A program made the position numbers and the translations under genes. From contig JANQND010000011.1 of the NCBI GenBank assembly GCA_028279765.1, positions 30,976 through 94,975 on the forward strand: a stretch of DNA of 64,000 nucleotides, read 5' to 3'. Shown piece after piece: positions 5,904-31,053 of this stretch. The notes beneath the pieces are model-generated. The model did no database searches and was not told where the DNA came from. It saw nothing but the letters and a program-made list of their open reading frames with translations. Source of the DNA: Candidatus Nanoarchaeia archaeon. GTDB taxonomy: Archaea; Nanobdellota; Nanobdellia; Woesearchaeales; WJIZ01. Numbering within the stretch: the stretch's first letter is position 1; each line of letters begins with the position of its first letter.

Positions 5904-6506
5904 TTAAACACCACTCTCAGCCATTCGGGTTGGCGAGCGAAGCGTTCCTTCGATCCTTTTGATCTCTTCTCTGAGATGGTCGATGGTTCGCTGGTTTTCC
6001 TGCTGCTGAAGAAGGGTTCCGCATTCCGGACACTTAAACTCGAACTCAGTTGCCTGATCGAAATCCAATCTTGCACATGCTTTTGCGCAAATAAAGAAAA
6101 TGCCTTTGCTTGCCTCTTCTTTTCTGAGGCGCTCTTTGAGTCGCTCAAGCTGCATTTTTTTCATGTTTTCGATGAGCTCATTGATTCTTTTCTTATTGAA
6201 GGTCCAGTAGCTGATGTACCAGCCTTTTTGCCTGTCCTTCTTTCGAATATAGGTCGCAACATGATGAGTATGCAGTTTATAGAGCGTGTTTCTTACGGTC
6301 TGCATATCCAGCTTGAGTTTATCTGCGATGGTAAATTCAGAGACGTTTTTTTGATCTCCCAGAAAATTGATAATGGCAACGCCGACTTCTCCTGCTACTG
6401 CAAACACAGTATCTTCTACTTTTTTGTTTTCTTTCTTCTTTGGAGCTGCTTTTTTTGCTTTTGTAGCAGTTTTCTTGGTTTTTTTTGCCGCCATTGTCTT
6501 TTCCAA
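5904..6506 (-). CDS. tfe: Transcription factor E (TFE alpha) with lysine-rich N-terminal tail
   Basis: Winged-helix region followed by a zinc ribbon (CPECG...). The N-terminal about 30 aa are K/A/T-rich (KKTKKTATKAKKAAPKKKENKK). Confidence 0.7.
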   Translation of the reverse strand: MEKTMAAKKTKKTATKAKKAAPKKKENKKVEDTVFAVAGEVGVAIINFLGDQKNVSEFTIADKLKLDMQTVRNTLYKLHTHHVATYIRKKDRQKGWYISYWTFNKKRINELIENMKKMQLERLKERLRKEEASKGIFFICAKACARLDFDQATEFEFKCPECGTLLQQQENQRTIDHLREEIKRIEGTLRSPTRMAESGV

Positions 6507-6732
6507 TTATATGCGAGAGCAGTCTCTCAGGCTCCATTTATGATGAAACGCTAGTACTGCAGAACACATCATCTACCTGTTCTTTCGCTTTAACCTAATT
6601 TATGAGAATACTCTTATATAAATCTTTCGGTTTAAGTATACACTTTTGTGATATTTTTCCGTCGATAAATGAGTTTATATAGATTTAGTAACCATTATAA
6701 AGTAATGATACTAAGTTATATAATTTATATAA

Positions 6733-6999
6733 TCATTCAAGCCTCACCACATTAGTCGTAGGCAGCTTGATGCCGATCTTGCGAAGATTGACTAAGTCTT
6801 CTATCTGCTTTCGAGTAATCTTGAGGAATTCCTCATAATCTTTTGGCTTGAGCTTTCTGAGAAGGAAGTGGAAAGTATCAATATGGGTATTGTATACTCT
6901 TCCCATTATGGGATGTTTCTGCACACATTTCTTGCAGATGAAATGCGACCCAATGATTTCCAGCCAGGAATCTTCTCTCTTGCAGCTATCACAGTTCAT
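6733..6999 (-). CDS. small zinc-ribbon protein (CxxC...CxxC)
   Basis: MNCDSCK...FICKKCVQ. Overlaps the upstream GTPase gene by 4 nt on the same strand, so they are probably co-transcribed. Confidence 0.45.
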   Translation of the reverse strand: MNCDSCKREDSWLEIIGSHFICKKCVQKHPIMGRVYNTHIDTFHFLLRKLKPKDYEEFLKITRKQIEDLVNLRKIGIKLPTTNVVRLE

Positions 7000-7742
7000 T
7001 GTATTTCTCCCTTCTGCCAGTCTTTGATAATCATTCTTGCTGCTCTTTGAATATCAGCTTCCCCACCCTTTTTCAAGATATTCTTTTTGAGAGCGATCTG
7101 TTCAATGATTTCTTCCTGATCTTCCCTTTGGTCTTCCTGGTAGTGAGCCTCTATTTTTCCCGGAAATGATTCCATGAGCTCTAATACGATGAGATCGGGA
7201 TCTTTACATTTGGCATAATCAATGCTTCCGATAATCGTGTGCTTTGCCGTGTCTTTTTCTTTGTAGGGGATGACACCCGGAGTATCCAGAAACACTATTC
7301 TATTGTCTGCTCTCACTTTCTGAAGGCCTTTGGTATGGCCGCTTGAAGAGCTTGTTGAGGCCGAATGCTTTCCCTTCATGGCGTTTATTAATGAGCTCTT
7401 GCCTACATTCGGATATCCGAGAACCCCTACATTGGTTTTTTTGAACTGCGGATAGGCCCTGGTGGCTTCTATGAGAATCCTGTCTCTGAGCATGGTTGTT
7501 CCATGATGGTTCTTTGCCGAGATGAACACACAGGGTTTAAGTGTTTTCTTTTGCTTTTCAACGATTTCTTTGTCTACCAGATCACATTTTGTGAGGACAT
7601 AGATTAATGGTTTATTCGCTTTTTTTACTTTGTTTTCGATCTCTTTATTTCTGGTCTGCTCGATCATTCGTGCATCCAGAAGTAGTAGGAGCACATCAGC
7701 ATCTTCAATAACCTTGTTTACGACATTCCAAAAGTTTGGCAT
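6996..7742 (-). CDS. Circularly permuted ribosome-biogenesis GTPase (YlqF/RbgA/Nug1-like)
   Basis: The G4 motif (TKCDL) precedes the G1 P-loop (GYPNVGKSSLIN) and G3 (DTPG), which is the permuted order seen in YlqF-family GTPases. Confidence 0.7.
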   Translation of the reverse strand: MPNFWNVVNKVIEDADVLLLLLDARMIEQTRNKEIENKVKKANKPLIYVLTKCDLVDKEIVEKQKKTLKPCVFISAKNHHGTTMLRDRILIEATRAYPQFKKTNVGVLGYPNVGKSSLINAMKGKHSASTSSSSGHTKGLQKVRADNRIVFLDTPGVIPYKEKDTAKHTIIGSIDYAKCKDPDLIVLELMESFPGKIEAHYQEDQREDQEEIIEQIALKKNILKKGGEADIQRAARMIIKDWQKGEIQ

Positions 7743-7788
7743 AAGAGATCAAGTCCTTGGAGGCTATAAAAAGGTTTGTGAGAATCAA

Positions 7789-8232
7789 TCAAATACCATT
7801 ACCCTGGTTCTGCCAGATGTCCTCGAAGATTTCCCGCTCAAAGAATGCGAATCTTCCCTGGTGCTGCCTGTTCTCTAAGGAACTATCACCAAGCACGTGT
7901 TGGCGATGATGGGCAAGCTCATGGCTTATGGCATCGACACTGCACTCGTGCAACTCCAGAACACCATTCTCGTAATAATGCCCTATGAACTCTCTTTGAG
8001 GAGACTGTATTTTAATTACTCTCAGACCTTCGAGATATTCATCAGAGACACTGTCCAGTATTTGCAGGCATTCCTCTTCCTGAGTTGTATCATAAATTTT
8101 TAGTTCAATGGTTCGATATTTGGTTGGATCAACATAGGCACCAGTGATATCACTGACTTCAAATCGAATGACATAGGAGAATACCAGAAGAAAAACGATA
8201 ACTCCCGCTGTCGTCATAATGATTTTCTGCAT
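7789..8232 (-). CDS. membrane-anchored putative zinc metalloprotease (HExxH; DUF45/WLM-like)
   Basis: Start trimmed to MQKIIM, giving an N-terminal TM anchor, then an HELAHH motif. The track's upstream extension would translate through the GC-rich structured element, so it is rejected. Confidence 0.45.
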   Translation of the reverse strand: MQKIIMTTAGVIVFLLVFSYVIRFEVSDITGAYVDPTKYRTIELKIYDTTQEEECLQILDSVSDEYLEGLRVIKIQSPQREFIGHYYENGVLELHECSVDAISHELAHHRQHVLGDSSLENRQHQGRFAFFEREIFEDIWQNQGNGI

Positions 8233-8302
8233 ACTTACTTTTTGGGCATTAGGGTATAAATATGTTTTGGAATTGAGAACATAATTAACTATAGTAGTCT
8301 CT

Positions 8303-8436
8303 TTTGACGCCAGCAACTTTGACGGCTGACGGATTGCAAGGCAATCCTTGTCGGCTACCCCGGAGGGGCTGAATTTGCTAAGCAAATTCAACTTCGCATA
8401 GCGAAGTTCCCCCAGCCGACCAGCGTCACAGCTGGC
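8303..8436 (+). ncRNA. candidate structured ncRNA (element A of a two-member family)
   Basis: GC-rich island in an AT-rich intergenic region. It carries hairpins ggattgc-aag-gcaatcc, gaatttgc-taa-gcaaattc and cttcgc-ata-gcgaag, plus an enclosing helix gtcggct/agccgac. Shares CTACCCCGRAGG and TCCCCCAGCCGR motifs with 12307-12447. Strand is assumed. Confidence 0.45.
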
Positions 8437-8500
8437 TATTTTTATGTTAATTAGGACTGTAAGAACATACTTTTTTATAGTTTTCAACTATTTGTTACTT

Positions 8501-9118
8501 ATGGTGCAATCATTCAACGCTGAAGGAATACTCTTTTTCCCTTATGCACGGTTTATGAGAAAAGAGCTTGCCATCCCTCATCTGCAGATGAAGAATATTT
8601 CTCAACTTGACCCGAAAAAATTGAAAAAAGCCGGTATTAGGGCTGTTGTGTTTGATAAGGATAATACTCTGACTGAACCCTATGCTTTGATAGTACACCC
8701 CAGTATAAGAAAATCACTTGCTTCTTTTCGAAAAGAATTCGGCAAGAACCTTGCTATTCTCTCTAATTCTGCAGGATCAGCTGATGATAATGCCTTTCGG
8801 GATGCAAAGAACATTGAAAAATCGCTTGGCATCTCTGTCATCAGGCACAAAAAGAAAAAACCTTCCTGCATTGATGAGGTTGAGATGCATTTTGGGATAA
8901 AACGAGAGGAGATTGCCTGTATCGGTGATCGATTATTTACCGATACGGTGTTTGGGAACCGCTATGGCATGCTTACTATTTTGGTTGAACCGTTTACTCA
9001 TAAGAGAGATAATTGGTTTGCAAAGATGCTCGGTCTTTATGAAAGAAAATTACTCGAGAAATGGGAAAAGAAAGGAATGAGTCCTCTGGCGCATCCTGCT
9101 CAAGAAAAACTGGCTTAG
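8501..9118 (+). CDS. HAD-superfamily phosphatase, subfamily IIIA (YqeG/GEP4-like)
   Basis: Has the VVFDKDNTLT (DxDxT) motif and a downstream GDR..D motif. Start chosen at the internal ATG (MVQSFNAEG) to avoid overlapping the structured element. Confidence 0.65.
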   Translation: MVQSFNAEGILFFPYARFMRKELAIPHLQMKNISQLDPKKLKKAGIRAVVFDKDNTLTEPYALIVHPSIRKSLASFRKEFGKNLAILSNSAGSADDNAFRDAKNIEKSLGISVIRHKKKKPSCIDEVEMHFGIKREEIACIGDRLFTDTVFGNRYGMLTILVEPFTHKRDNWFAKMLGLYERKLLEKWEKKGMSPLAHPAQEKLA

Positions 9119-11040
9119 TTGCCTTCAAATTCTGCCCGTACAATATCGCGATCAATTCTTCGGATGCACTCAGACATTTTATCGCGCAGATCACCATCAG
9201 TTGTTGCCTTGATGATTTGCTTTTGCACATCAATGATTCTTCTGAATAACCGAATAATATCTCCTTCTAATAGGTTGCAGTACCCGAGCAACTCAATGAA
9301 CTGCTCCTCATTGGACCAGGCACTGATCATTGCGGTGAGCCGAAAGAGGCTTTTCTTGTTGATTTGACGATCAAGATAGCGATTAGGACAAATAATGCTT
9401 AGAATATGCCCATAGGTTGATTTGGCTCCTTTGGTCACGAATTTATCCATCCTGCGCTCTTCATACACAATTGCTGCAATGATACAGTTAATCTCTGTGA
9501 CAGAGAGTTTTTTGTACATCTGTGAATAAAAGAGTTCGCTGATGAGCAATTCTTCAAAATAGATATGGGTTGCGAAATCACCTTTTCCGGTGATGTGCTT
9601 TTCTTCATCGATATATCCCATCTTGGTCAGGTTTTTGACTTTATTGTTATAGGAGGCAACAATTCTTACTTGTTTATCCGACTTTGTTCGCAGAAAATAA
9701 TCAAAGTTACTCTTGAGAATCGTGTCGATCTCTTCTTCTGTGTGTGCCTTGATAAGGTTGAGAACCGTATTTACGGATAATCGAAATTGAGAGACAATCG
9801 GCTCAATGTCCTTATCGGTGAGTTTCTTTATTTTTTCAATGTCTGCCCGTCTTCGATCCACTAAGGCGATGACAGTTCCGTGCGTATCAATTCCTCTTCT
9901 TCCTGCTCTTCCTGCAAGCTGGAAATATTCTTTGGAATTGAGGTAGCGAAAGGAATACCCATCATATTTCTCTAATGAATCAAAACAGACGGTCTTTGCG
10001 GGCATATTGATCCCTACGGCAAAGGTTTCGGTTGCGTAGAGTACTGAGATGAGTCCTTTTTCAAAGAGCCGCTCTACAATCTCCTTGAGATTAGGGAGTA
10101 GTCCTGCGTGATGATAGGCAATTCCTTTGGTGAGGCACTCTCTGATCTTTCGATAGCTCTGCATTTGCCTCACTTCAGCATTGAGATGCTTATTGATGAT
10201 TTCGATGATTTCTTTTTTCTGCTGTTTTGAGCAGTAATCACGCATCTTAGCAAGCTCCTGGCTGTATTTCTCGCAGGATTTTCTGTTGAAGATAAAATAA
10301 ATGACCGGGACATTGTTTCCGATTTCCTTGATGAGGTCCTTGTGATTGGCAGGGTATTCTCTGGGCTGCTTTCTTCTTCCTCTGCTCCTGATGGAGTAGG
10401 TGGGAATGTCCTGGATATGGGTTAATTTCTCTACATCAGTAACCCCGAGGGTTTTCTCGAAGACTGAGTGCGTGAGGGGAACCGCTCGCTTGTCATGCGA
10501 GACCACATGCACGTTATGCCCTTTGATAGAGGAGATCCATTCAGCGAACTCTTCAGCATTGGGAATAGTAGCAGAGAGGCATAAGAACCGAATAGTAGTT
10601 GGAGAGAAAATAATGGATTCTTCCCAGACTGTTCCTCTTTCTCTATCAGAGATATAGTGAATTTCATCAAAGATAACATAGCTGAGATGCTCCATGATGT
10701 CATCGCGGCTCAACAGCATGTTTCGATAGATCTCAGTGGTCATGACTAAGAGCGGTGCATCGGGGTTGATAACAACATCACCAGTCATGATTCCTACATT
10801 TTCTTTGCCGTAATCATTGATGAAATCCTTGTACTTTTGATTTGAAAGCGCCTTGATAGGCGCCGTATAGATAACTCTTCTTTTGGATTCGAGAAATTTA
10901 TGAATAGTATAGTCGGCAGTAAGAGTTTTTCCTGTCCCGGTTGGTGCAGAGACAATGACCGAATCGTTGTTTTCGATATGATTGATGGACTGAACCTGAA
11001 ATTCGTCCAGTGTTAACCCTTTAAATTGCATGAATTTCAA
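9115..11040 (-). CDS. Ski2/Mtr4/HelY-like SF2 RNA helicase with C-terminal DSHCT domain
   Basis: Walker A APTGTGKT, a DEIH box and SAT. The C-terminus (LLEGDIIRLFRRIIDVQKQI...RRIDRDIV) resembles the DSHCT domain of Mtr4/Ski2/HelY. No arch/KOW insertion at 641 aa. Confidence 0.7.
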   Translation of the reverse strand: MKFMQFKGLTLDEFQVQSINHIENNDSVIVSAPTGTGKTLTADYTIHKFLESKRRVIYTAPIKALSNQKYKDFINDYGKENVGIMTGDVVINPDAPLLVMTTEIYRNMLLSRDDIMEHLSYVIFDEIHYISDRERGTVWEESIIFSPTTIRFLCLSATIPNAEEFAEWISSIKGHNVHVVSHDKRAVPLTHSVFEKTLGVTDVEKLTHIQDIPTYSIRSRGRRKQPREYPANHKDLIKEIGNNVPVIYFIFNRKSCEKYSQELAKMRDYCSKQQKKEIIEIINKHLNAEVRQMQSYRKIRECLTKGIAYHHAGLLPNLKEIVERLFEKGLISVLYATETFAVGINMPAKTVCFDSLEKYDGYSFRYLNSKEYFQLAGRAGRRGIDTHGTVIALVDRRRADIEKIKKLTDKDIEPIVSQFRLSVNTVLNLIKAHTEEEIDTILKSNFDYFLRTKSDKQVRIVASYNNKVKNLTKMGYIDEEKHITGKGDFATHIYFEELLISELFYSQMYKKLSVTEINCIIAAIVYEERRMDKFVTKGAKSTYGHILSIICPNRYLDRQINKKSLFRLTAMISAWSNEEQFIELLGYCNLLEGDIIRLFRRIIDVQKQIIKATTDGDLRDKMSECIRRIDRDIVRAEFEGN

Positions 11041-11064
11041 AGAAGTGAGGAGGTTTAAATAACT

Positions 11065-11205
11065 TTAGCTCCTGGCCTTGAGCTTTTTTCTTTGTTCATA
11101 GCAAGCAAAACAGAGTGTATGAACTGTCTTATTGTCATTCGTGTATAATCTACAGTCAGAAGCGCTATTAATGTGCTTTTTGCAAGATTCGCATTGATTG
11201 TACAT
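11065..11205 (-). CDS. small C4 zinc-ribbon protein (about 46 aa, unannotated)
   Basis: Manual translation gives MYNQCESCKKHINSASDCRLYTNDNKTVHTLCFACYEQRKKLKARS, with two CxxC pairs. Confidence 0.35.
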   Translation of the reverse strand: MYNQCESCKKHINSASDCRLYTNDNKTVHTLCFACYEQRKKLKARS

Positions 11206-11312
11206 GGTACACCTGCTGGTAATCTTTGCTTACTACTTTAGAGATGTTAATGTATAAATAATTTGCGAATGAATATAAACTGGAAGAAAAAGATAAGAAA
11301 AAAAGAAAAGGC

Positions 11313-11460
11313 TTAGGCTTTTCCAAGGATTCTGAATACTTTGGTTCCGCAGTCAGGACATACACCCTTTGCTGCCTTCATACCATTTTTCATGATCGTT
11401 TCCTCTGGATCTTTGATGGTTACTTGTTTTTTACATTTCATGCATCTTCCTTCTGGCATA
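11313..11460 (-). CDS. small zinc-ribbon protein (about 48 aa, unannotated)
   Basis: Manual translation gives MPEGRCMKCKKQVTIKDPEETIMKNGMKAAKGVCPDCGTKVFRILGKA, a CxxC...CxxC arrangement typical of small archaeal Zn-ribbon proteins. Confidence 0.45.
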
Positions 11461-11563
11461 GTATCACCTTTGATTGTTTTTACAGTATTTTCTCATATAG
11501 CCTATTTAGTTTATAAAACTTTGGGAAAAATATTCGCTGCTAAGGGCCTGATTTATAAAGAAA

Positions 11564-12253
11564 TCACTTCACAATCTTGAGAAGGTCTAAGATGTCATTG
11601 AGCTCATAATCGGCTTTTACGATCTTTTTTCCTTTTCTGTGGCCATATTTTGCAAAGCAGGTTTGCATTCCCATCTTTTTTGCGCCCATAATATCGCGCT
11701 CAGGCATATCCCCAACCATGAGGCAGTCTTCAGGCGGAAGCCTGAGTTTTTTGAGTGCGACTTCAAACGGCTTGGGAGATGGTTTTTTCTGCTTGGTATC
11801 ATCAAAGGTTACTACGGTATCAAAGAAATAATCAATCTTCATTGCACTGAGCCTCATCCAGGCCTGTATCTTTGGCGCGTCGCTGACAATCGCCAGAGTA
11901 ATTCCTTTCTCCTTGAGCTTTTGCAGGGTGGCGATAACATGAGGATACGGCTCAAGAAAGCCTACCCGTACTCTTCGATAGGCGTTGATCGCGTAGGCGA
12001 GAATCCGATAATCAATTGTTTTTGTCTCTTCCTGGAGAAATTTCTGAAAAATGGTCTGATGCTCCCAACCTAACTGATCATAGAGCTTGAAGAGTTTTCG
12101 CATTATTCTTTCCGCTTTCATGTCAAGCCCGGCATCTATCATCGCCGAGGCAGCAGCCTCGACACTGAGGCGTTTCATTTTGATGAAGTCAGTGAGTGTG
12201 TTGTCAAGATCAAAAATAATAGCCTTTATCATGATCTTTTCTGGACTTAACAC
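11564..12253 (-). CDS. HAD-superfamily hydrolase, subfamily IA (phosphoglycolate phosphatase-like)
   Basis: IIFDLDNTL motif I and a downstream VGD..D. The start may instead be the internal MIKAII at 12232. Confidence 0.7.
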   Translation of the reverse strand: MLSPEKIMIKAIIFDLDNTLTDFIKMKRLSVEAAASAMIDAGLDMKAERIMRKLFKLYDQLGWEHQTIFQKFLQEETKTIDYRILAYAINAYRRVRVGFLEPYPHVIATLQKLKEKGITLAIVSDAPKIQAWMRLSAMKIDYFFDTVVTFDDTKQKKPSPKPFEVALKKLRLPPEDCLMVGDMPERDIMGAKKMGMQTCFAKYGHRKGKKIVKADYELNDILDLLKIVK

Positions 12254-12306
12254 CTATATAAAATGTGTGGAGATGTTACATAGAGTTCTTACTTTTCTTT
12301 ATTGCC

Positions 12307-12447
12307 ATTTTGACGATGATGGAGGTAGACGCTCACGACGTTCGCTACCGACTACCCCGAAGGTCATGGAAAGCAACAGACTGATTGTCTCGCTTTCTAG
12401 GACTCCCAGAAATCCTTGATTTCTGTGAGGGGCATCCCCCAGCCGGT
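12307..12447 (+). ncRNA. candidate structured ncRNA (element B, homologous to 8303-8436)
   Basis: GC-rich island in an intergenic region. Shares TTGACG..TGAYGG, CTACCCCGAAGG and TCCCCCAGCCGG with element A and has a GGGG-cat-CCCCC hairpin. Compensatory base changes in the outer helix: accgact/agccggt here against gtcggct/agccgac in A. Confidence 0.4.
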
Positions 12448-12577
12448 CTACTCCATCGGCAAAATCATGTAAGGAACTGTGTAATGGATCAAAGATAGTT
12501 TCAAACTTTTAATTTTCAGTATCGAAATTAATCCCGCTTTAGAATACTTTATATAGAAACCTGCAACGAGAAGTCTC

Positions 12578-12916
12578 ATGAAACAAGTCATTATTGTTCG
12601 TTCAGACCTGAAACTCCCGAAGGGCAAAATGTCTGCACAAGTTGCTCACGCATCAACTGAGGCAGTGCTTCGGTCGCATAAAGATGATATTTCGGTATGG
12701 AGAAAGGGCGGGATGAAGAAAATTGTCCTGAAGGTTGCTAATCAAAAAGAACTGCTAAAATATAAGACTCTTGCAGAAGATCATGGCTTGGTTACTGCAC
12801 TTATTACTGATGCAGGCCACACGGTTGTTGAGCCGGGAACCATGACTTGTCTAGGCATCGGTCCAGATAAGGAAGAGAAGATTGATATGGTTACTGGTAA
12901 ACTCAAGATGGTGTAG
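12578..12916 (+). CDS. pth2: Peptidyl-tRNA hydrolase, archaeal type (Pth2)
   Basis: MKQVIIVRSDLKLPKGKMSAQVAHAS... is the canonical PTH2 fold signature. Size 112 aa. Confidence 0.9.
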   Translation: MKQVIIVRSDLKLPKGKMSAQVAHASTEAVLRSHKDDISVWRKGGMKKIVLKVANQKELLKYKTLAEDHGLVTALITDAGHTVVEPGTMTCLGIGPDKEEKIDMVTGKLKMV

Positions 12917-12970: not shown

Positions 12971-13074
12971 GGGCTCTTAGCTCAGCCTGGTTAGAGCGAT
13001 CGCCTCTTACGCGACTGGTTATATACCAGTATGAAGAAAGCGATAGGTCGGGGGTTCGAATCCCCTAGGGCCCA
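12971..13074 (+). tRNA. tRNA-Lys(CUU) with about 29-nt intron in the anticodon arm
   Basis: Cloverleaf folded by hand. Acceptor GGGCTCT/AGGGCCC, D-stem GCTC/GAGC, anticodon stem ATCGC/GCGAT, loop CUCUUA(A/C), T-stem GGGGG-TTCGAAT-CCCCT, discriminator A. The intron (~cgcgactggttatataccagtatgaagaa) contains its own hairpin. No CCA is encoded. Confidence 0.75.
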
Positions 13075-20551: not shown

Positions 20552-20646
20552 GGGCTGGTAGTTAAATCTGGAAGCTGGGAACAGTTGGATAATATAACGC
20601 GCCGCTGGCAGCGGTGAGGCTCCGGGTTCAAATCCCGGCCAGTCCA
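20552..20646 (+). tRNA. tRNA-Ala(GGC) with non-canonical intron (about 18-20 nt) in the D-loop
   Basis: Folded by hand. Acceptor GGGCTGG/CCAGTCC with a G3:U70 pair, the alanine identity element. U8-A9, D-stem GTTA/TAAC enclosing a 30-nt loop (normally 8-11), anticodon stem CGCCG/CGGTG, loop CUGGCAG, T-arm CCGGG-TTCAAAT-CCCGG, discriminator A. Confidence 0.65.
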
Positions 20647-30711: not shown

Positions 30712-31053
30712 ATGATTTACCCTATATACATAATAGGATGCGCAATTATTTTCATTAGTCTTTACATTAAATGGTTTCGAGAGACCCAAATTATTATAGA
30801 TTATGCTAGACAAAAATATGCTAAAGAATCAGGAGAATTACCCAGGTATGCCTCACTACTGCCTAGCTTGTCATTTAGATACTCAAAGCCCCAAAACAAT
30901 TGGAGAGAGTTACTTAGAAAGCACCCTCAGGATGAGAGGCTACGCAGTGTTAATAGGATTATCCTCAAGTATGGATTGATTAGCTTCTTGGTTTACATCT
31001 TGTTTACTGCTTTTGTGTTTGGTATCGGCTTTCTCTTCTCCACACACATTTGA
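30712..31053 (+). CDS. small membrane protein, hypothetical
   Basis: Two TM segments flank a basic loop. Confidence 0.4.
   Translation: MIYPIYIIGCAIIFISLYIKWFRETQIIIDYARQKYAKESGELPRYASLLPSLSFRYSKPQNNWRELLRKHPQDERLRSVNRIILKYGLISFLVYILFTAFVFGIGFLFSTHI

Follow-up and report, generated by a model that had tools for sequence, protein, structure and literature searches.

Repetitive extragenic palindromic (REP) sequences and bacterial interspersed mosaic elements (BIMEs) are GC-rich, structured, intergenic, and multi-copy, and they stand singly or as inverted pairs. They lie in operon junctions and between promoters, at sites that differ between relatives, and keep their pairing while their sequence drifts. 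REPs themselves are simple imperfect hairpins of ~35 nt, whose near-identical copies number tens to hundreds, and they are associated with RAYT transposases. Here, we describe an element that resembles REPs and BIMEs in its behavior, from a DPANN archaeon of the Woesearchaeota/Nanoarchaeota group. It lies in a stretch of 64,000 nt (the window; positions 30,976 to 94,975 of contig JANQND010000011.1, assembly GCA_028279765.1), whose closest named protein relatives are proteins from Woesearchaeota/Nanoarchaeota metagenome-assembled genomes (MAGs), and it occurs there at two intergenic loci, A and B. Unlike a REP, the element is a three-way junction of 75–165 nt, whose core is kept across distant genomes and whose copies occur at low density, and no Y1 transposase is linked to it at any locus examined. 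The comparison with REPs and BIMEs is an analogy of behavior only, and we claim no membership for the element.

A and B are two old, diverged copies of one uncatalogued structured nucleic-acid element, most likely an RNA. An earlier note on this DNA had proposed their homology from an ordered set of shared blocks, and the blocks it described are indeed present at both loci. Exact matches to CTACCCCGRAGG on either strand of the window are confined to 8355–8366 and 12352–12363, and those to TCCCCCAGCCGR to 8408–8419 and 12435–12446. By a hand estimate, the chance of a second ordered pair of both 12-mers within ~100 nt in 128 kb is ~1e-7. A plain local alignment of A with B is not significant (score 22, against 16.5 ± 2.6 for shuffles); the homology therefore rests on the ordered blocks, the structure, and the relatives, and the two loci alone would be insufficient proof. 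Both regions fold far better than shuffled sequences on either strand. The fold of A has −64.7 kcal/mol on the plus strand (z −5.6 against shuffles) and −68.3 kcal/mol on the minus strand, while that of B has −61.7 kcal/mol on both (z −3.4 on the plus strand). The GC content of the two islands is raised as claimed, if modestly (0.47–0.51 against a background of ~0.40).

The family to which A and B belong is a conserved, strongly base-paired three-armed element that occurs in some Woesearchaeota. Structures are described on the plus strand of the window, here the reference orientation, unless stated otherwise. An outer stem (P0) of 6–15 bp and free sequence is followed by a bulge or loop of 2–5 nt on the 5′ strand and by P1, which comprises 4 bp, a bulged G or A, and a further 3–5 bp and opens into the three-way junction. 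A junction ‘AC’ leads to the side hairpin H2 (6–10 bp with a loop of 3–17 nt), and a junction ‘U(A)’ to the helix P3 (7 positions), which is contiguous with P1 on the 3′ strand. P3 encloses a near-invariant GC core, A-CCCC-GNR-GGGG(G)-CRU-CCCCC. Outside this core the sequence is free to change while pairing is kept. With P0 included, A spans 8309–8436 and B reaches ~12465, so that the extents first given (8303–8436 and 12307–12447) need adjusting at the 5′ end of A and the 3′ end of B. The TTGACG..TGAYGG block reported as common to both is present in each, but it falls on P1, the junction, and H2 in A and on P0, the bulge, and P1 in B; the resemblance is therefore probably a coincidence.

A search of related genomes, as the earlier note had suggested, revealed 14 further copies in Woesearchaeota/Nanoarchaeota contigs (loci of relatives carry L numbers). 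The third copy, L010, lies in the Nanoarchaeota MAG GCA_030647105.1 and emerged from a fuzzy search of loci fetched for other purposes. Free of inserts, it represents the minimal form, GGCGGCUG-UC-GGGCUGC-UCC-GCAGCCC-UC-GUCAGCC-ACCCCGAGGGGGGCUUCCCCC-GGCUGAC-CAGCCGC; another minimal copy, L090, measures 113 nt. A metagenome pattern scan for this minimal core returned 120 loci, mostly chance matches in GC-rich contigs, and about ten low-GC contigs with true copies, some of which have diverged copies next to them on the other strand (L116b, L121b, and the L145 pair). The DnaK encoded at L121 is identical to that of ‘Candidatus Woesearchaeota archaeon CG10_big_fil_rev_8_21_14_0_10_44...’. The pattern CTACCCCGRAGGN{42,72}CCCCCAGCCG, with a gap range chosen to suit A and B that leaves out the minimal form, gave five chance matches in GC-rich genomes when genome contigs were scanned, one of them inside an RNA cyclase open reading frame (ORF) of a Thermoplasmata MAG. 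Scans of viral contigs with both patterns recovered no family member, blastn against phage and plasmid collections gave no meaningful match, and 75 kb on four contigs from three other Woesearchaeota genomes contain no copy. Core-only or truncated copies, with P3 and the core present and P1 and H2 unclear, were observed at L056 920–945 (+) and L091 913–966 (+); the former, on the reference strand, is followed after 12 nt by the predicted start of a Cdc48 gene.

Full-length MAFFT alignments were rejected, as they misplaced H2 and element B, and a covariance model (R1) was therefore built from six length-normalized seeds, obtained from real sequences by trimming one additional P1 pair and the apex of H2. 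The real sequences were then re-aligned to R1 to give alignment A8. R1 scores 12 copies, hereafter the confident copies, at 45–75 bits. Because of their inserts, A and B score only 12 and 10 bits, respectively, and no further copy is found in the 64-kb window. Both are expanded members in which every element of the family is present in order, and their membership rests on this element-by-element correspondence, not on bit score. The relatives repeat the pattern seen in P1 of A (4 bp, a 1-nt bulge, 3–4 bp, then ‘AC’), and the pattern of B, with a 3-nt bulge, 4 bp, and a 1-nt bulge, is also found in L116b and L121b. The two-hairpin insert of A is missing from the minimal relatives.

The pairing is strongly supported by covariation. 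In the model-fitted alignment A8, 88.0% of the paired cells hold standard pairs, compared with 67.9% in shuffles and 32–53% when the partner strand is slid. Among the 12 confident copies, changes on both sides are seen in 20 of the 25 modeled pairs (P1, 6/7; H2, 7/7; P3, 5/7; core helix, 2/4), and RNAalifold independently recovers P1, H2, and the inner part of P3. At most one of 200 shuffles equals P0 in seven of 12 copies, and four and eight shuffles do so in two more. P0, P1, H2, and outer P3 were left free in the search, and their covariation is therefore not an artifact of how members were found. The compensatory change first noted in the outer helix of A and B, now P3, stands (GUCGGCU/AGCCGAC in A, ACCGACU/AGCCGGU with one A × C opposition in B), and this helix covaries in the relatives as well. 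As the earlier note had argued, such covariation points to a conserved structure and not to an ORF or a simple promoter.

The same note had found no RNA family to match, and our searches agree. In Rfam 15 (4227 models, both strands), the only match in the whole window at the gathering threshold is a tRNA at 12971–13074. At E ≤ 10, A and B return only noise (tmRNA at 5 bits, RMST_8 at 13 bits), the minimal relatives return nothing at the element, and 137 kb of related loci return tRNAs only. Literature searches yielded no description of such an RNA.

It is highly improbable that the element is a very divergent universal RNA missed by standard models, be it 5S rRNA, the S domain of signal recognition particle (SRP) RNA, RNase P RNA, or an odd or split tRNA. 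In size with P0 (~105–115 nt) and in having a three-way junction, it does resemble 5S rRNA and the SRP S domain. The likeness to 5S rRNA (~105–120 nt with P0) extends to a junction closed by the 5′ and 3′ ends and to very short junction strands. As in helices 5, 6, and 8 of the SRP S domain, a long closing helix of the element leads to two hairpin arms in matching order; one arm is GC-rich, with a purine-rich (GNAR-like) apical loop of 3–4 nt and an asymmetric internal loop. In addition, tRNA-Trp goes undetected by tRNAscan in 30 of 123 complete genomes of Woesearchaeales (bioRxiv 10.64898/2026.05.13.725050). However, none of these RNAs yields a match even at E ≤ 10, including RF00001, and the loop C and loop E signatures of 5S rRNA are absent. 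Paralogs of the element carry different large inserts. Canonical 5S genes occur in almost every complete Nanobdellota genome, with a normal one detected by the Rfam 5S model in 203–205 of 208 (bioRxiv 10.64898/2026.05.13.725050). The element has neither the symmetric helix-8 loop of SRP RNA (AGCA/GG-A) nor an Alu domain. A tRNA, whether split or intron-bearing, was rejected, as ARAGORN and the Rfam tRNA model are silent at the elements and no T-loop-like sequence or anticodon loop is present. Multiple copies diverged within one genome, as well as inverted pairs, do not fit a universal RNA.

Other known motifs were also considered. Inspection of A8 and its flanks revealed no conserved boxes, two-sided pocket, or conserved ACA, and C/D and H/ACA guide small RNAs (sRNAs) were rejected. 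K-turns, the bulge-helix-bulge splice motif, a hammerhead core, an H/ACA pocket, base triples, and hepatitis delta virus-like folds were rejected by eye: the bulges share one strand, the 3-nt bulge is not followed by GA, and the polarity is wrong for a C+.G-C triplex. Integron attC sites were rejected as well, since there are no R″/R′ cores (RYYYAAC...GTTRRRY) at the ends, no cassette arrays, and no integrase nearby.

The G tract of the core can pair with either C tract, as first described, and the two pairings are nearly isoenergetic: when either C tract is barred from pairing, the energy difference between the two resulting folds is −1.5 to +4.1 kcal/mol in 15 copies. L116b shows a joint change of the G tract and both C tracts (C.G.C to U.A.U) that keeps both helices. 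The two helices are not equally well supported. The helix of tract 1 with the G tract is 95.8% paired and has two covarying pairs, whereas that of the G tract with tract 2 is 85.4% paired and has one, which depends on register; one L145 copy cleanly keeps only the former. The inserts sit in different core loops, that of A in one and that of B in the other. The core may be bistable, and the second C tract may permit a minor alternative hairpin. A single G tract with two C-tract partners, in forms within a few kcal/mol of each other, is reminiscent of bistable switches, but the element has no aptamer-like conserved pocket, linked terminator, Shine-Dalgarno (SD) sequence, or coherent regulon, and its alternative helix is the less conserved. 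Both alternative hairpins lie inside P3, neither an SD sequence nor a start codon is involved, and the adjacent T-run is missing in most copies.

The near-isoenergetic hairpins and the concerted change of the three tracts in L116b are what a cis-regulatory 5′ leader (a riboswitch, attenuator, or thermometer) of the downstream gene might show. On the minus strand, A precedes the HExxH membrane protein gene (7789–8232) and B the HAD hydrolase gene (11564–12235). On the complement, 11 of 13 copies point the same way as the gene that follows, and in eight its start codon lies 58–113 nt downstream. We nonetheless regard a leader as improbable. Few conserved single-stranded nucleotides are available for a ligand pocket, the alternative fold involves neither SD sequestration nor a terminator, and its helix is less well kept (85% vs 96%). 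A TATA-like box separates the element from the gene in A, B, L010, and L034, ~25 nt ahead of the downstream ATG, and this position suggests that the genes have leaderless mRNAs of their own. Two copies converge with their neighbors. The downstream genes, moreover, have no common function. The HAD phosphatase genes next to A and B, which the earlier note had pointed out alongside a riboswitch- or attenuator-like arrangement, have no counterpart at the other copies. A and B are neighbored by genes for the HExxH membrane protein, HAD, YqeG, and Pth2, and the other copies by DHH, Nre, DDE transposases, RadB, DnaK, Cdc48, L35Ae, a glycosyltransferase-like protein, and an ORF that we named carboxyltransferase-like by eye from its sequence. 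These neighbors share no coherent function, and adjacency to HAD genes is peculiar to the window. Syntenic relatives that lack the element at the same site, the inverted pairs, and the missing terminator or SD-sequestering platform likewise speak against a riboswitch or attenuator tied to HAD genes; the element is not a ligand-sensing leader of the neighboring HAD genes.

The element is multi-copy where present and positionally labile, since its insertion sites differ between syntenic relatives. It is the only DNA common to the member contigs. Inverted pairs occur at three loci (L116, L121, and L145) in the same relative arrangement, their outer strands adjoining or overlapping. In L121 (2660–2870) and L145 (4100–4300), the outer-stem strands of the pair overlap, so that one segment of ~20 bp serves both copies, one per strand. 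At L121, the pair lies between DUF3467 and dnaK, upstream of dnaK. At L145, whose DnaK is 84% identical, the DUF3467–dnaK gap is 11 nt and the pair lies downstream of dnaK, and at L146 the gap is 24 nt and there is no pair. Similarly, B lies between HAD and Pth2, and the syntenic locus L140 has 76 nt between those genes and no element. L011, a relative with 85% Pth2 identity, has no confident copy in the 6.9 kb examined (best model match 14.1 bits, E 0.26). Synteny walks from the YqeG phosphatase and Pth2 genes revealed no element at the corresponding sites; the L010 copy was a chance find.

Changing insertion sites, inverted pairs, and perfect palindromic hairpins could also suit DNA instead of RNA, with the element as the single-stranded fold of a recombination site or mobile element (integron attC, IS200/IS605-end, or REP/RAYT type). 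C(GNA)G, a very stable DNA mini-hairpin motif, is found as triloops in the reference orientation, and DDE transposases adjoin two copies. We give this possibility little credence. There is no Y1/HUH transposase or integrase near any locus examined, no attC core, cassette array, or target duplication, and no phage or plasmid match; copy density is low and the copies within one genome are highly diverged. The two DDE_Tnp_1 genes, L034 345–971 (+) and L090 695–1297 (+), end 25–50 nt from the element, and these transposases and their flanks are unrelated at the DNA level. Insertions may target the neighborhood of the element in these cases.

The note had placed A and B on the same strand. They do share one orientation, but the strand that folds is probably the other one. 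In the reference orientation, the pairs of the 12 confident copies comprise 263 Watson–Crick pairs, no G.U, seven A × C, and 26 pyrimidine–pyrimidine oppositions; on the complementary strand, these oppositions become seven G.U wobbles and G.A pairs. A minus-strand tandem 5′-CGAG/5′-CGAG is present in P3 of seven of the 12 aligned copies (UGAG/CGAA in L145a), and G.A recurs on this strand at the third pair of H2, with a tandem G.A in H2 of B. The complementary strand is the more stable in 11 of 12 copies, and its loops are purine-rich. The mismatch census and this greater stability favor the minus strand of the window, which we consider fairly probable but not settled. TATA-like boxes at about −28 in the reference orientation of L116b and L121b count against it, as do the T-runs and the head-to-head pairs described below. 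The apical loop was discarded as a strand clue, as UNCG (minus) and GNAR/GNA (plus) both fit most copies and neither fits all (L116b, L145 copy 2). At L116, a tRNA-Arg gene (2534–2607, −) lies ~120 nt from the element copy at 2307–2413, co-directional with it in the reference orientation and with no TATA box between the two, an arrangement that suggests co-transcription.

Our best explanation, to which we assign a probability of about 0.45, is by analogy that the element is a protein-recognized structural module in transcripts that serves as a processing, stability, or termination barrier in a REP/BIME-like manner. It would be carried in its own or in read-through transcripts, most likely from the minus strand of the window. 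A protein would recognize this very stable module through its conserved GC core and its non-Watson–Crick pairs (on the minus strand, the tandem G.A of P3 and the G.A of H2). The module would then act between genes as a barrier in RNA processing, stability, or termination, as bacterial REPs and BIMEs do, and the same protein recognition may also drive its spread to new sites.

Several observations weigh against this explanation. The 64-kb window holds only two copies, which are highly diverged. No target-site duplication, flanking direct repeat, or conserved terminal repeat was found, and P0 sequences differ between copies; DDE_Tnp_1 genes flank only two copies and no dedicated transposase is linked. 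Of the hallmarks of REPs and of miniature inverted-repeat transposable elements (MITEs), insertion polymorphism and inverted pairs are present, and many near-identical copies, terminal repeats, target-site duplications, and a cognate transposase are absent, so classic REP or MITE behavior is not shown. T-runs directly follow P0 on the plus strand in A, L090, and L115, and paired copies stand head-to-head on the minus strand without room for TATA promoters. The transcription, strand, and ends of the element are all inferred. Furthermore, A8 was fitted to the model and the search pattern fixed the core for most members, so that core invariance is partly an ascertainment effect. A 27-nt core is identical across genomes whose proteins are 50–85% identical, which would fit a host-essential RNA at least as well.

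The main rival explanation, which we consider less probable, is that the copies form a family of stand-alone genes for trans-acting sRNAs. Each sRNA would scaffold a ribonucleoprotein (RNP) and have its own promoter, with the GC core as a protein or RNA site and the paralogs as functional variants. In agreement with this, the core is strongly conserved, the stems compensate, the element is the only conserved DNA between contigs, and the helix order of the junction is that of the SRP S domain. TATA-like boxes lie 25–55 nt from the outer stem in several copies, and A, L090, and L115 have the T-runs on the reference strand. The flanks of A and B are alike on one side only, and this common flank (Table 1) could be a minus-strand promoter; the TATA box in the A flank could instead serve the divergent YqeG gene. 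Against sRNA genes stand their patchy presence and non-syntenic positions, and the adjoining or overlapping ends of the inverted pairs, which leave no promoter room on the favored strand. Promoter-like motifs are moreover expected in AT-rich intergenic DNA, and several suit neighboring leaderless genes equally well. A transcript-borne module recognized by a protein remains our preferred explanation.

Table 1. Parts of elements A and B and their flanks (window coordinates; plus-strand sequence unless stated; BRE, B recognition element)
Feature	Position	Strand	Sequence or pairing	Basis or remark
Element A, full copy including P0	8309–8436	(−) favored, not proven		Folds on both strands; family architecture
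A, outer stem P0	8309–8314 with 8431–8436		GCCAGC with GCTGGC	Duplex −13.1 vs shuffles −6.0 ± 2.2 kcal/mol
A, P1	8321–8328 with 8421–8427		GACG-g-CTG (bulged G 8325) with CAG-CGTC	Fold; pattern recurs in relatives
A, junction	8329–8330		AC	After P1
A, side hairpin H2	8331–8347		GGATTGC-AAG-GCAATCC	Fold
A, P3	8350–8356 with 8414–8420		GTCGGCT with AGCCGAC	Fold; covariation
A, core, 5′ part	8357–8369		A, C tract 1 (8358–8361), GGA, G tract (8365–8368), C	Near-invariant in family
A, specific insert	8370–8407		38 nt; two perfect triloop hairpins (8370–8390, 8391–8407)	Between G tract and C tract 2
A, T and C tract 2	8408–8413		T, CCCCC (8409–8413)	
A, flank	8454–8496	(−)	..AAATAGTTGAAAACTATAAAAAAG..ACAGTCC..	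Candidate BRE/TATA and start region for minus-strand transcription of A
Element B, full copy	12307–12465	(−) favored, not proven		Folds; 5′ half aligns to model as GGAG-g-TAG-AC-H2-TA
B, P0	12308–12312 with 12460–12464; 12314–12317 with 12455–12458		TTTTG/CAAAA; CGAT/ATCG	
B, bulge	12318–12320		GAT	
B, P1	12321–12328 with 12448–12454		GGAG-g-TAG with CTA-CTCC	
B, H2	12331–12345		Plus, weak: GC-UC-A...U-UC-GC; minus: GCGAA-CGUCG-UGAGC with tandem G.A	By reading of the sequence
B, P3	12347–12353 with 12441–12447		ACCGACT with AGCCGGT	One A × C on plus, G.U on minus
B, core, 5′ part	12354–12363		A, C tract 1 (12355–12358), GAAGG	
B, specific insert	12364–12428		~65 nt; two hairpins (~12368–12398, 12407–12425)	Between C tract 1 and G tract
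B, G tract, CAT, C tract 2	12429–12440		G tract (12429–12432), CAT, C tract 2 (12436–12440)	
B, corresponding flank	12473–12510	(−)	..AAAAGTTTGAAACTATCTTTG..ACAGTTCC..	Candidate, by comparison with A

The window encodes, among others, Pth2, TFE, a Ski2-like helicase with a DSHCT domain, and HypCDE, and the genes for the YqeG phosphatase, the helicase, and HAD lie between A and B. A Logan assembly (SRR20820735) also contains this sequence. A block of TFE, an 88-aa gene, the helicase, HAD, and Pth2 (window 5904–12916) is syntenic with L140 5273–10339 from the Woesearchaeota MAG GCA_014729995.1. In the window, a segment that the L140 block lacks, with a GTPase, the HExxH membrane protein, element A, and the YqeG phosphatase, separates the 88-aa gene from the helicase. 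The helicase (9115–11040, −) is of the Ski2/Mtr4 type with a C-terminal DSHCT domain, a eukaryote-like exosome-cofactor architecture, and is kept in L011 and L140. The YqeG/GEP4-type HAD phosphatase (8504–9118, +) has among its best matches many eukaryotic PGP-phosphatase homologs (plant, algal, and amoebal) with 40–50% identity. An intron of 31 nt interrupts the tRNA gene at 12971–13074 (+). The Rfam tRNA model gives this gene 56.4 bits, but it was missed by ARAGORN, whose sole call in the window is tRNA-Ala at 20578–20646. The same Rfam model finds further long-intron tRNA genes (118–129 nt overall) at L141 3672–3790 (+), L141 6485–6602 (−), and L034 2592–2720 (+).

Non-coding DNA is scarce in the tiny genomes of DPANN archaea, for which, to our knowledge, hardly any lineage-specific non-coding RNA has been reported. 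A more far-reaching and still doubtful interpretation is that the element represents a new class of three-way-junction RNA of Woesearchaeota (DPANN), either as an RNP subunit or recognition module or as a structure-dependent mobile RNA element that spreads as inverted pairs, and that its GC core would toggle functionally. An identical core and four helices kept by compensation, combined with mobility and duplication, point to a dedicated protein partner and suggest that these symbionts have RNA biology or genome dynamics at a level so far unrecognized. Alignment A8 and model R1 provide a ready covariance-model seed for a census of the more than 200 complete Nanobdellota genomes and of metatranscriptomes.

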